Of a DNA stretch of 64,000 bases, positions 11,901 through 20,900 are shown piece by piece. Every line of letters starts with the position of its first letter. Position 1 is the stretch's first letter. Where the stretch lies: assembly GCF_056746865.1 (NCBI RefSeq), contig NZ_CM163382.1. One strand, given 5' to 3'. A program made the position numbers.

Positions 11901-14900
11901 CAAAGATGAAAGCCTAGATATTGTAGATGCCGAAAATATGAACTGGATGCAGGCATTGCGTTTTGTTGCAGCAAAAGGCCATCAGAAAGCAATTATTGTT
12001 TTCCAGGATACGTTGCAGACAGGAAAATATGACTCTGGATTAAAATCAATAGTTTGGACAGATTATAAAAATCAAAAATTGACTGACACGATGTCACTGC
12101 GTTATTTGGTTCGATTCACGCTGGTGGATGTGGCTACAGGTGAGTGGGCTACCTGGTCGCCTGTGAATTATGAATCGAAACTGATTTTTCCGCAGATAGG
12201 GAATAAAAATTCTGACAGCCTTGATGTGGCAGAACAGCAGATTTCACAACTTAAGCAGAAAACGTACGCAGCAGTGGTTAAAGACCTGGTGAATCGATAT
12301 CAGTAGTGAGGTTTTATACCAGACGTTTTAGTGGTACTTAGCAGGAAAGAGCATTTTTCTTTTCTGTTTTACACTATGGAACAAGTCTGCTAATTAATTT
12401 TACATATATTTTTTAGGAGTAGTAAAAATTTTCCTCAAGTTATTTGTTGTCCTCTCAACATATAAGCTGTAGTTCGAGTTTTCGGTTGAACTGTCAAAAA
12501 TACATCACATACATCTATAAAACAGCAGGTACGGTTAATTAAGAATTTTTATTCGTGATTAACCGTACTTTGTCATTTTATCCTATAATGTTAAATTGCC
12601 TTTTTAAAATATAACAATAATGCAGATGAAAGACTCCCAGGTAACTTAGAAAATCCGTTCACTCCACAGACTGTACGCACTGGTTCCGGCGACGATGTGC
12701 TCCCAGTTGATGCTCTCATAGGTAAATGACACAGACTCTTCCGGCTGCCCTGGGCTGTCGTTAATGGTATGGGGAACGGTAAGGCCGATGTTTGAGATCC
12801 GGGCATTAGTCAGTTTCAGCTTGTAGTACGGCTCATTAATACCAAAACGGTTGGTGCGATAGAAGACAAAATCACAGGTCAGACATTCATTCTCCGAAAT
12901 GGCCTTGCCCAGAAGGGGGGAGGATTTGTCCACCGGTTTCGTGATAGTCAGTTCCTGGTGATTGACGTTCTGTGCGCGACTCAGCCCATGGGACAGTGAC
13001 ATCACCATGATCTGATCCTGATGTGCAATCTGGGCCTTGTTACCGATGGACGGCATTGACGAGCATCCGGATGAAATCAGTCCCTGGAGTTCTCCGTTTA
13101 GTGTCAGATAGACGGGATTTGCCATTGTTATTCTCCTTAACCTCAATGAGTCGGATGGACAGGTTCGGTTCTGGTATCCGTTGCCATATCCTGTCCGGTA
13201 TTTTTCAGCAGTAGCCAGCGGCTTAACAGCCCGTCCAGCCGTTCGTTGATCTCTTTTTCCAGCGCCTGTGTGTCCTGCTTCCGTGCGCGTGTCTCCTGGT
13301 ACTGTGTCAGCAGGTACTCCAGCGGTGTTTCCTGATTCAGTAACCGTTCGGCCTGCCAGGTCACCGTCTTGATATACGAGAGGGTGAAACCCTGTTTCTC
13401 CGTCTCCTTTTTCATCATCAGATCCGCAAAGTCCCGCAAATTCTGCCGCGCCTGTTGCCAGCCCTTCATCTGCGGACTGGCTTGCGCCCGGTTTCTCAGC
13501 GTGTTGCTCCACATCCTGCTGGCTTCCTGCTGTTGCAGGCTTTCCGGCCAGAGGGTGTCTGCGGTGCGCATCATCTGCATTCCGGTTTCCAGCGGCTGTA
13601 GTGGCGGGGCATCCAGAAGCTGTTGCAGGTACTGTTCATATTCTTTCAGTACCGGGGAGGCCAACCAGGCGGTGGCGGCTCCCTGTGCGGTATCCCTGAC
13701 TTGCGTAAGCTGCCGTTGTATCGGATACGCCTGCCACCACCAGAGTACTGCCGCGATAACGGCAGTACAGGCGGCACCGGCAACAAAACCTTTTACCGTG
13801 CTGCCCTGTCTAACGTTGTCGGCGTTATTTGCCACACCGCGCACCTCCACCCGCATTTCCGGCAGGTCGGGCAGGGGAGGCACGGCTTCCGCTGTGGTGG
13901 AAGCCGTGCTTTCCGGCGCATAGACCAGCGTCCGGACCGTGGTCTGTGCCGCCGTATCAGTACGGTTTCCGGGCTGCGGCTCAAACCGCTTGCGTGTGTT
14001 CTGCACAAAATAAAGCAGGTTTTCCACGCGCGGCTGGCGCTTCAGTTCCACCTGCTGGAGTTTGTCGCAAATAAGCTGTAAAGCCCGTTCCGTGCGGTAG
14101 AGCAACGGCAGATCATTTTCGGAAAAGGACACCTGCTGGCGCAGAATATTCCCGGTGCGGGTATTGAACCAGTCCAGCATCTCAGTCCGCGCCGGGCCAC
14201 CCTGCGGCCAGAATTTATCCCATTCGTGGGTGATCATCGCAGCCAGCAGTTCCGAGCCTTCGCAGAACCCTGCCAGCCCCTGATTACGGGTACGCGCCAG
14301 CGTATAGTAGGTGGCGGTATGCAAATCCACCCCGTTGGCCTTAAAAATCGACAGCGCCAGCGATTCCACCAGTTTCCAGTTCAGCTCCGGCTGTGACGGG
14401 TGGTTAGCTTTGTTAATTTCTTCGCGGATGGCGCTGAACTCCGGCAGGGCGCGCGGATCGCTGCCGGTAACGATAGTTTGTGTCAGTGCGTAATTGCTCA
14501 TCACTATCCCCTTAATACAACGTATCCGGTAAACGGAACAGGCTGAACAGACCGCCGGTGAACGGGTTATCTTCGGTATCCACATGCACCCGGTAAACCA
14601 TTGCGCCGCCGTCCACGTTAAAGCGCACGTTAAAGGTGTCACTGGTCACATTGGTCAACTGGCCCGCGCCGAACAGGCGGAACTGCGCCCACGGTCCACT
14701 GAACGCGATACTGTGCGGTGCTCTGCCGCTGGTGCCAATCAGCGTCAGCTTGCTTTCATTGCCTTCACGCATGTTGTTCGGCCAGACCAGATGGGCGGTG
14801 TAGTTGCGTCCCTGGCTGTAGTCCACTAACTGGCCGTCCAGGTTAAGTACGCTGCGCCGCTTATTGCCGGAAAGCGATACGGTTTCCACGGCAAACTGTG

Positions 14901-17900: not shown

Positions 17901-20900
17901 CTTGCCACCAGATCCACACCAGCAGAAAAATCCATGCCAGCGCCAGCAGCCAGGCGGCGGATACCCTGAATCGCGGCATCGCTGGCCTGAGAGCAGATCT
18001 CAGCGTGCTGAACAGTCGGGATGTCGGAAATCTGAACACGGTAACTCCTTGTTATCTTTTACTGTTCTGCCGTGAATTTTTGTTCCAGTGCTTCCAGCAG
18101 GGACGGTTCCCATTCGGACAGCATCATGTGTAATCCTGTTCTGAAGAGTATCCGGTACTGCTGTTGTGCAAGCTGAACCATACCGGCCTCTTCCAGTAAC
18201 TGCGCGCCGAAAAACTGGCGGTGAAACTGGTGGCGGGGATCACCTTCGGGCAGGTTTTCCAGGTACCGCAGCGCGGCTTCCAGCCCGTTTTCATCGAAGC
18301 ACGCCCTGGCCGCCTGTAATTCTTCATCGGTCTGTACAACCGGGGCGGTCTGGTTGACTGAGCCGGATGATGCCAGCCACTGTTTCGTCTGTTCGGACAC
18401 AAACGGAGTGCGGTCGTTAAACAACAGGTTGATCAGTGCGGGCAGGCGGGCCAGAAAACCGGTAACTTCATCACGGATAGCATCCGCCACCTGTTTATAA
18501 CCGAGGCGCAGCGCGGTCTGTGCTGAGAGGTAATGACCGTCCAGCCAGTACGGGGCCAGCAGCAGGCTTTTTTCCACCTGCTGCCACAGCGCCATATCGG
18601 CATTGTTCAGCCGCGCCAGGTAATCATCCATCATATCGACAGGGAAGGCTGCCAGTGGGGTCCGGCCATCGCTTTCTGCCTGCGGGGTACTGGTGATGGT
18701 CTGCCACAGAGCATGGCGGCGCAGTCGGTAACCCTGCGGTGACTCCGGCTGGCGCTCACAGAGAATGGCGGCCACCTTCAGCAGGGTGTCGCGCCATGCT
18801 TTATCGTCGTGGCTGTCAACAGTGACCTGCGGGATTGGAGTGGCTGCAACAGGAGGCTGAGCGGCAACCGTGTGCGGTGACATATCCGGTACAGATCCGG
18901 CTGTGGCCTGCGGCGCAATGGCGGCGGTTCGTGCAGATGATGGCATTTCAGGCGCTACATCACGAAACGCGCGCTGAAACAGGGCAAATAAATCGTCTGT
19001 CGCCTTAGCCAGCTCAGGAGCGTTGTGCGCCTGCCAGCACTGTGCCAGTTTTGCCAGCTCTCCCAGCAAAGCATCGCGCTGTATTGTCGCAGCATTCCCG
19101 GCAAAGTCCTGAACGGCAGACTCAAAGCGTTTTATCACCTGGGCGGCAAAGCGTTTTTTGTGGGCCATGTTCTGCGGTGCGGCGCATGTCCAGTAGTGTT
19201 CTGTATATTGTGCCAGCATCCTGGAGGCCAGCAGAATATCACCGGCATGTTGCAGGGTACGCAGCAGGTGGGCCAGCAGGCGAAAATCTTTGGTTTCTGA
19301 GGCCAGAAGCATCAGGCCCCGGCGCTGAAGTTCCGGGATATCAAGCTGGCTGTGCGCCAGTGAACCGAGCTTGACGATTTCGCTGTCGACAAACTCCCAG
19401 TCTGCATTGCCATCATCAAGCGCGGCGGACAGCTTATCTTCCGGCAGGTTTTCCAGCAGGTGTGCAAGCCATACATCGGGATTACGTAAGTCCATTGCCA
19501 TATTCTTATTCTCCCGCCCAGTGGCAGGCGTCGCGTAGCGGCGCAATAACCCGTGCCAGCCCGTCAATGTTAAAGGTCAGCTTTCCGGCGGCGTTGTCTG
19601 TGCCGGTATCCACCGTCAGCGTTTTTGCGCCGAACAGTTGCTTAATTTCATCGATACCGGATAACCCCCGGCTGGACTCCAGCAGGGTGCCGTTCTCGCG
19701 CACAAACCAGTGGCTGCGTAATGCCCGGCTGTCGGCATTCAGGGTGACGGCGATATCATGGACATCCAGAGGGTGCATCAGCGCCACCTGCATCCGGGTG
19801 ATATTGTCCACGCAACTGAACATCAGCACCGGGCGCGGCGGAACATGGCCGATAGCCGGGGTGGTTATCACTACCGTCGGGCGTTCACCCGGCACCTGCG
19901 TCACCAGCAGCCCTGTGGTATTGCCCTGGCGGCGTTTTTCCTGCTCTGTGGCGCGGGTCCAGGCTTCGCCCTGGTAACGGGCTTTCACCAGTGCAGCCCC
20001 ACCAAAGGCTGGCTGCTCTGGCGAAAGAATGCGGTCATAACAGTCAAGCCGCTCCAGCGCCGCAGGCTCCCGCCGACAGGACCGCATGGACTGTAACGTG
20101 GCTGCCGCATCCGAAGGTGTCGCTGTTGCAGCGGCTACCGCCACACCGGCCATTGACGATGTTTCTGCGGGCGCGGCACTGGCGGGTAAGCCCGCCATCA
20201 GGCCCGCGATAAACCATCCTGTCTGCAGGAAAACGCGCAACCTGCTCATAAAACCGTTTCATCCTCTGTGACGGACTCGTCGTTCAGAACATCTTCCACG
20301 TCTGCTGTGAATGCACCGTCTGCCACCGACAGGCGAATCCGGGCAATCGCCGTGTTAGCCGCCATTTTCTGCAACAGCAGCAGCGAGAGCGGCGGCAGCA
20401 TGTCGCCGTCAATGACCGATTCGAGCATCCTCGCGCCGTTTTCCGCGCGGGTGACGCGGCTCATGATTTCGTCCGTCACTTCCGGTTCAATAATCACGTC
20501 CGCACCAAAGCGGCTGCGCAGCACGTTATCCAGGCGGGCCAGTTTCCCGGCAATAATGGTAGCGAGCGTCGCTTTCGACAGCGGCAGGTATGGCACCACT
20601 TCCATACGCGCCAGCAGGGCGGGTTTAAAGAAGTCTGCCAGCACCGGATACAGGGCTTCCTGCATGGTTTCCGGGTCATCGGCGTGTTCGACAATCACCT
20701 GATAGCCGAGGTTGGAGGTGAGGAAGAAGACGATGTTTTTACAGTCAATCAGGCGGCCCTCGCCGTCCGCCATCTCGCCCTTGTCAAACGCCTGGTAGAA
20801 CAGGTTGAGCACATCCGGGTGCGCTTTTTCCACTTCATCGAGAAGTACCACCGAGTAGGGTTTCTGGCGGATGGCCTCAGTCAGCACGCCGCCTTCGCCA

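Follow-up and report, generated by a model that had tools for sequence, protein, structure and literature searches.

TagA-class proteins of type VI secretion systems (T6SSs) stop growth of the sheath and hold its distal end (PMC6745524, PMC7545191, PMC6450956, PMC7896307). The aspV T6SS cluster of enteroaggregative Escherichia coli (EAEC) 042 was already described in 2010 (PMC2808357), and that of enterohaemorrhagic E. coli (EHEC) has been assigned to T6SS phylogenetic group 1 (PMC10433429). In this study, we analysed 64,000 nucleotides of an E. coli chromosome (NCBI RefSeq assembly GCF_056746865.1, contig NZ_CM163382.1), hereafter called the window, which carries a T6SS island. Two accessory genes between positions 13143 and 20249 on the minus strand are the subject here: a tagA-family gene between tssM and hcp, and vasI between clpV and tssA. 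A first-pass annotation made from the sequence alone had found both open reading frames (ORFs), correctly placed, had called them positional equivalents of Vibrio cholerae vasL and vasI, and had argued that their retention means that they are functionally required.

Mutants of the related genes have been characterized. The V. cholerae ΔtagA mutant has five-fold fewer sheaths and three-fold fewer contractions, its sheaths are over-long, bent or detaching, and its killing is unchanged unless sensitised by tssE deletion (PMC6745524). In EAEC, TagA is reported to bring TssA to the envelope, and about 12% of killing is left in the ΔtagA mutant (quoted in PMC6730261). In V. cholerae, the ΔVCA0121 (vasL) mutant secreted Hcp and killed like the wild type when assayed in bulk, and the ΔVCA0118 (vasI) mutant secreted Hcp and VgrG-1 normally, was avirulent to amoebae and killed E. 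coli less strongly; an effector or adhesin role was proposed for VCA0118 in 2011 (PMC3166118). Our text searches of the literature for VasI, TagO and VCA0118 returned no mechanistic study later than that year. The best explanation of our results, to which we give a probability of about 75%, is that the window holds two ordinary, already named accessory genes of a group-1 aspV-island T6SS, one with a TagA-class role and the other with a VasI/TagO role.

The TagA-class gene downstream of tssM

The VasL-like gene lies on the minus strand between tssM (14512-17949) and hcp (12646-13125). Mechanical ORF calling gives 499 residues from a GTG start (13143-14642), which would overlap tssM by 131 nt. 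The true start is likely the ATG at 14501, which has a GGGGA Shine-Dalgarno sequence and lies 10 nt past the tssM stop. The NCBI annotation of the identical sequence picks the same start and names the product 'VasL domain-containing protein' (WP_000073803.1). The gene thus defined (13143-14501) encodes 452 residues.

The protein has two Pfam domains, ImpA_N at residues 12-113 (positions 14163-14468; 72 bits, cut-off 26.9) and PF12486 (VasL) at residues 288-432 (positions 13206-13640; 86 bits, cut-off 27.3). Exactly one segment exceeds 1.6 on the Kyte-Doolittle scale, residues 238-256 (positions 13734-13790, score 1.85), and it is predicted to be a transmembrane helix. Exactly one such segment was also found in 65 of the 72 orthologs, at relative position 0.54. 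The ImpA_N-like N-terminus and the single hydrophobic segment noticed in the first-pass annotation were thus both recovered. The structure prediction that it had recommended was also run, and the AlphaFold model, built with 46 homologs, has a mean predicted local distance difference test score (pLDDT) of 83. In this model a folded helical N-domain (about residues 10-175) is followed by a disordered linker (179-233), a long helix (235-269) that contains the hydrophobic stretch, and a C-terminal helical bundle (272-438); within the bundle the VasL domain is all-helical with pLDDT about 90. A fold search with the VasL domain gave nothing beyond generic helical-bundle matches, and a PDB sequence search with the whole protein gave TssA N-domains only.

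The architecture of ImpA_N, a hydrophobic segment and VasL is that of TagA, a class B TssA-like protein (Schneider et al. 2019; PMC6745524), and in phylogenetic groups 1 and 2 TagA is paired with a long TssA that has a VasJ domain (PMC7896307; PMC10433429). The window protein has ImpA_N, a later hydrophobic segment, C-terminal PF12486 and full-length homology to TagA, and its partner TssA (18059-19501, minus strand) is of the long form, with ImpA_N and a C-terminal VasJ domain (T6SS_VasJ 250 bits, TIGR03362 455 bits). The homology is to the TagA ORF of the EAEC 042 Sci-1 region, with 29% identity over 449 residues (E 4e-54). That ORF is intact, encodes 455 residues and has the same two Pfam domains in the same order. 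We take it to be the published TagA (EC042_4550; Santin et al. 2018) from its position and domains. Sequence comparison thus places the gene at 13143-14501 in the TagA class, and NCBI annotation already names the gene.

The two systems differ in setting. The tagA gene of Sci-1 stands several kb past the last core gene (tssE), after unrelated genes, whereas the window gene directly follows tssM. The two proteins are similar in size and alignable end to end, and a long TssA is encoded alongside each; however, the cluster that encodes the window protein is of another type (aspV, group 1). Its RefSeq accession is shared with the VasL-domain protein of the EAEC 042 aspV cluster, to which the window protein is identical. 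Thus EAEC 042, where TagA was discovered, has a second, unstudied TagA paralog. In the RefSeq annotation of this strain, the Sci-1 TagA (NC_017626.1, 4884070-4885437) is split into three partial pseudogene pieces, ImpA_N, 'POTRA' and VasL. This looks like an annotation artefact; the ORF is intact in a single frame.

The relation to Vibrio was examined with the Vibrio rumoiensis cluster in place of the V. cholerae VCA0118 and VCA0121 sequences. The V. rumoiensis protein at the same post-tssM position has 400 residues and aligns with the window protein over the N-terminal 186 residues only (27% identity, E 6e-15), that is, over the ImpA_N region; the C-terminal half is not alignable, and the protein has no PF12486 match. 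This agrees with the report that the V. cholerae anchor is a separate form, 'TagAV' (Bernal et al. 2021, PMC7896307). The equivalence to Vibrio vasL holds for position and for the N-terminal part, and the window protein, alignable over its full length with EAEC TagA, is closer to the latter. The statement that the roles of both genes are poorly defined is out of date for this gene, because it can be aligned end to end with the studied EAEC TagA, the function of which is published; for vasI it still applies.

The membrane topology of the protein is less clear. The large periplasmic domain proposed in the first-pass annotation follows from a single membrane pass and a cytoplasmic ImpA_N. In 65 orthologs, the 15 residues before the hydrophobic helix contain on average 2.45 lysine plus arginine residues and the 15 after it 0.92; the N-terminal flank is the richer in 47 orthologs and the poorer in 4. 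This positive-inside bias favours a predicted N-in/C-out orientation with a periplasmic VasL domain.

VasI between clpV and tssA

The vasI gene (19506-20249, minus strand, 247 residues) overlaps the stop codon of clpV with its start codon (ATGA) and is separated from tssA by 4 nt. Its product scores 185.9 bits against PF11319 (cut-off 26.5) and 267.5 bits against the NCBIfam VasI equivalog TIGR03360 (cut-off 124.2). Family membership and name are already known, and the protein also goes by the name TagO in some NCBI records. The signal-peptide ORF of the first-pass annotation is hence VasI, and for both genes the relation to the named families is one of true homology and not of position only: profile hidden Markov model scores assign them to the VasL/TagA and VasI families, not to unrelated ones, and V. 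rumoiensis VasI, encoded in the same place between vasH and tssA, is 31% identical (E 3e-34). The V. rumoiensis genes run clpV, vasH, vasI, tssA, tssM and the gene of the ImpA_N protein. V. cholerae vasI likewise lies between vasH and tssA.

The N-terminus, read by eye, resembles a Sec signal, MSRLRVFLQTGWFIAGLMAGLPASA|AP, with a predicted cleavage site A-S-A|A after residue 25 (signal peptide 20175-20249). Hydrophobic, signal-like N-termini were present in all 16 aligned relatives. An Ala/Thr/Pro-rich linker extends from the signal peptide to about residue 47 (pLDDT 57-62). The VasI domain (residues 58-244, positions 19518-20078) begins with two helices that carry C58 and C70, followed by a beta-sandwich that contains C146 and ends at C242. 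These four cysteines, R67, D72, W181, G195 and W244 are invariant in 80 members of the family that are 23-88% identical to the query. The family is small: a search of 1.84 billion proteins at E up to 0.001 gave 302 representatives. Compared with Vibrio VasI (VCA0118 family), E. coli VasI keeps the pre-tssA position and an equivalog-level score, and all four cysteines are conserved, as are the SCxDNITR and CxW motifs; in contrast, the E. coli gene directly follows clpV, with vasH missing, and the linker after the signal is longer.

The model of VasI has a mean pLDDT of 86, exceeding 95 from residue 100, and consists of three helices and the beta-sandwich. The closest fold was IalB of Bartonella henselae (PDB 3dtd), together with 8z5n_A, a 'component of sodium-driven polar flagellar motor'. 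In this confident model VasI is predicted to share an IalB-like beta-sandwich fold, although the sequence identity to these two proteins is 8-15%, and VasI is set apart by two further helices at its N-terminus and by its cysteine pattern. No PDB sequence was matched, either with VasI alone (E up to 1) or with a profile of 80 sequences (E up to 10), and a Pfam scan at E up to 0.01 gave nothing but VasI, with no membership of the IalB family PF06776. The IalB fold has no known mechanism. The Sec signal, the four conserved cysteines and the envelope-protein fold suggest that VasI is a periplasmic accessory protein and not a secreted effector. We also considered a periplasmic immunity protein and rejected it; VasI has a fixed place in a structural operon, with no effector gene adjacent.

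VasI has a clear phenotype from 2011, and the model, the four cysteines and the IalB-like fold are handles on its mechanism. For the other gene, work of 2018-2020 established how TagA acts, the cluster had been described in 2010 and standard annotation names both genes, so the discovery value is small.

Retention, selection and competing explanations

The presence of these genes in E. coli, which had been taken as unexpected, is ordinary. Of 5,426 complete E. coli genomes, 2,890 have the hcp-to-vasI block and 2,427 cover at least 80% of it, and the NCBI pipeline names both genes. Two E. coli lineages of the block, about 78% identical in DNA, both lie at aspV and do not differ in gene order. 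When the window was compared with strain HS, the ratio of nonsynonymous to synonymous substitution rates (dN/dS) was 0.162 for vasL, at a synonymous rate (dS) of about 1.0, and 0.295 for vasI, the latter resting on a low dS of 0.23 in a stretch that looks recombined. The values were 0.113 for tssM, 0.136 for tssA, 0.110 for clpV, 0.186 for tssK, 0.152 for tssF and 0.134 for tagH, and core genes ranged from 0.08 to 0.19. By these ratios, vasL and vasI are clearly maintained by purifying selection. As a separate observation, in the comparison of window positions 19506-22978 with the other lineage (locus L003, 21283-24794), dS was 0.23 for vasI and 0.47 for clpV against about 1.0-1.9 in their neighbours, which suggests that the vasI-clpV stretch is a recombined mosaic inside the cluster.

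We then compared 80 loci, one genome per species, which cover many genera in the Enterobacterales, the Pasteurellaceae and the Orbaceae. The loci were collected with the pattern SCx[DE][NK]ITR[MLI]Q, taken from 16 closer sequences, so that the sample is biased to these groups and holds no Vibrio. All 80 have the order tagH-tssJ-tssK-tssL-clpV-...-vasI-tssA-tssM-vasL. The vasI gene is intact in all of them, with the cysteine motifs in 79. A vasL homolog is present in 69 of the 70 loci that extend far enough past tssM, and the linker, the single hydrophobic helix and the VasL domain are conserved in these 69. VasI has diverged about as much as TssK, TssJ and TssA. VasL is the fastest-evolving of the nine module genes compared, with a median identity of 44.6%, whereas the other eight lie at about 50-72%. 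The sole exception among the 70 loci is that of Aggregatibacter actinomycetemcomitans (locus L052), which has vasI, tssA and tssM, with vgrG after tssM; a vasL homolog was not detected there.

The gene that differs among these loci is vasH. It encodes a full-length sigma-54 activator (about 480-506 residues) in two of the 80, those of Hafnia paralvei (L079, 8364-9881) and Enterobacter soli (L080, 8562-10001), and it is also full length in the V. rumoiensis cluster. In the Yersinia, Proteus and Serratia loci examined (L049, 9115-9909; L067, 9121-9909), it is a remnant of about 260 residues with the N-terminal region and a Fis-type helix-turn-helix only, and Photorhabdus and Morganella loci have a gap of the size of this remnant. 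In the E. coli/Citrobacter clade vasH is absent, and in the window the clpV stop overlaps the vasI start at 20246-20249. The pattern indicates that vasH was lost stepwise on the way to E. coli while vasI, vasL and tagH were kept, showing that these accessory genes are protected by selection in Enterobacterales. The operon had been called otherwise minimal; this does not hold, since tagH, encoding a forkhead-associated (FHA) protein, is kept as well.

Some E. coli genomes carry other arrangements of the two genes. In some, VasL is fused to the downstream Hcp in ORFs of about 540-618 residues (P0121-P0123, P0133); in others, VasI is fused to pieces of VasL or TssM (P0037-P0039, P0082), or vasI abuts fragments of tssF or vasL. 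These fusions and vasI remnants are decayed or deleted versions of the cluster.

Taken together with the published phenotypes, the following scheme is plausible. The TagA-like protein would consist of a cytoplasmic TssA-like ImpA_N, a disordered linker of about 55 residues, a membrane-anchoring helix and the helical VasL domain. Its homology to the TagA proteins of EAEC and V. cholerae suggests that it most likely waits at the inner membrane, where it would stop polymerisation and hold the extended sheath until firing. Without it, sheaths would be expected to become over-long, bent or detached and killing to become less efficient, with secretion kept. VasI would be exported by its Sec signal peptide, would probably form two disulfides around an IalB-like beta-sandwich, and may act in the periplasm with the TssJ-L-M envelope complex, aiding productive delivery into targets rather than Hcp export.

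Several points weigh against this scheme. The identity to the studied TagAs is low, both to that of EAEC and to the N-terminal region of the Vibrio form. The role of VasI in the scheme is a guess. As to topology, the 2018 abstract by Santin reportedly describes EAEC TagA as a cytosolic protein tightly bound to the membrane. Published descriptions call TagA 'membrane-associated', and C-terminal fragments of V. cholerae TagA were reported to bind cytoplasmic TssA, which speaks against a periplasmic VasL domain (PMC7545191). For the aspV copy of EAEC 042 there was no evidence of expression as of 2010 (PMC2808357). Finally, the T6SS of the window strain itself may be disabled, as discussed below.

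Four other explanations have to be compared with this one. If both proteins were strictly required structural parts, deletion of either would abolish Hcp secretion and killing. The near-universal retention beside tssA and tssM, purifying selection comparable to that on core genes, and tight operon packing, with start and stop codons overlapping or nearly abutting, would all be expected in that case. However, VCA0118 and VCA0121 are both dispensable for Hcp secretion and ΔVCA0121 kills normally (PMC3166118), EAEC ΔtagA keeps residual killing (quoted in PMC6730261), the A. actinomycetemcomitans locus has vasI with no detectable vasL, and the EAEC Sci-1 region has TagA and no annotated VasI, three hypothetical proteins checked there having no Pfam match. 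A strict requirement is therefore improbable. Of the first-pass argument, selective retention stands on the dN/dS values, on 69 of 70 loci and on the loss of vasH, whereas the step from retention to requirement goes too far, as the mutants of relatives keep secretion and part or all of the killing. Deletion mutants with wild-type activity had been named as what would overturn it, and in relatives they exist in part: ΔVCA0121 is wild type in bulk assays and ΔVCA0118 secretes normally. The proposal of 2011 that VasI is a secreted effector or surface adhesin fits the ΔVCA0118 mutant, which secretes normally yet is impaired against amoebae and E. coli, and the nearest fold, IalB, comes from an 'invasion-associated' locus. 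It fits poorly with a Sec signal peptide and four invariant cysteines, with a fixed structural-operon place across 80 loci and no adjacent immunity gene, and with a divergence like that of TssK, TssJ and TssA, which is not effector-like. To our knowledge, T6SS cargo normally has no Sec signal, and we regard this proposal, too, as having little chance of being right. Still less credible is one of the suggestions of 2011 for VCA0121, under which the VasL-like gene would be a copy of tssA that has no function and is decaying. Both proteins do share ImpA_N, vasL is the fastest-evolving gene of the module and ΔVCA0121 has no bulk phenotype (PMC3166118), but dN/dS is 0.16 at dS of about 1.0, the frame is intact, the linker, helix and VasL domain persist in 69 of 70 loci, and TagA mutants have clear imaging phenotypes (PMC6745524). 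The selection data already contradict it.

The remaining explanation concerns the window strain. The cluster may be inactive as a whole, and the two genes may be present by recent inheritance and not by current use. Compared with strain EC31, the cluster has three base differences, all protein-changing: tssM R1005P (14936), tssK A445E (23779) and tssG Q313* (27044-27046, minus strand, CAG to TAG). The last leaves TssG with 312 instead of 349 residues, a loss of 37 residues from a core baseplate subunit. It was found in none of 350 complete E. coli genomes matching the surrounding 61-mer, and so is a nonsense mutation private to the window strain when compared with EAEC 042 and other aspV islands. 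Against inactivity, three changes are too few to indicate relaxed selection, TssG without its last 37 residues might work, and the base may be a sequencing error; moreover, the state of one strain is silent on the role of the genes in the population. We regard inactivity in this strain as a real possibility, though one that we would not bet on, and users of the strain should be aware of the truncated tssG. Within the preferred reading of VasI as a periplasmic accessory protein, a more specific form can be proposed: VasI could be a so far unrecognised structural partner of the group-1 T6SS, an IalB-fold, disulfide-locked periplasmic brace that touches the periplasmic parts of TssM/TssJ and maybe also the TagA C-terminal bundle, if the VasL domain is periplasmic. 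This would account for the poor delivery by ΔVCA0118 in spite of Hcp ejection, and for the joint occurrence of vasI and vasL in 69 of 70 loci. With such a contact to TagA, the genes flanking tssA and tssM would jointly attach the sheath to the envelope at both of its ends. We hold this brace to be unlikely, if somewhat less so than a secreted VasI. A link between VasI and TagA is not obligatory, because Sci-1 has TagA without an annotated VasI and in the Vibrio cluster VasI occurs alongside a TagA without the VasL domain.

The aspV island and its other genes

The island lies 3' of dnaQ and a tRNA-Asp gene. It is the common E. coli aspV-island T6SS of group 1, the V. cholerae-like type, and shares the dnaQ/tRNA-Asp insertion site and the gene order with the islands of EAEC 042 (Ec042-0210-0226) and EHEC EDL933 (z0243-z0275). 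Its hcp-to-vasI block is identical (100.0%) or nearly so in many complete genomes, including strain EC31. The main operon on the minus strand consists of tssB, tssC, tssE, tssF, tssG, tagH, tssJ, tssK, tssL, clpV, vasI, tssA, tssM, the VasL-domain gene and hcp; the plus strand carries a divergent unit of hcp and vgrG. With the exception of vasH, this is the group-1 order tagH-tssJ-tssK-tssL-clpV-vasH-vasI-tssA-tssM-vasL.

The genes around the two accessory genes were assigned as follows. The FHA accessory gene tagH is at 25636-26916 on the minus strand (TIGR03354, 421 bits); a kinase and a phosphatase are absent from the aspV cluster (PMC2808357). On the same strand, clpV/tssH occupies 20246-22978. 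The membrane-complex gene tssM, which lies between tssA and the TagA-like gene, was identified from the NCBI annotation of near-identical sequence and from synteny. The downstream hcp, on the minus strand, encodes 159 residues (Pfam T6SS_HCP; TIGR03344, 204 bits) and is the last gene of the operon.

In the records of EC31 and 042, which are near-identical here, the plus-strand vgrG (33675-35633) is marked as truncated at the C-terminus. The 3' side of this vgrG, to about 40400, contains a DUF4123 adaptor gene, two hypothetical genes and remnants of an ISAs1 transposase. This vgrG and the genes 3' of it may be a disrupted effector module. Between the tRNA-Asp gene and the downstream hcp lies a plus-strand ORF of 261 residues (11521-12306) with a lipoprotein signal (…LLAGC). 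It is annotated as hypothetical and has no Pfam or NCBIfam match; strain HS has a counterpart in the same place with 83% identity.

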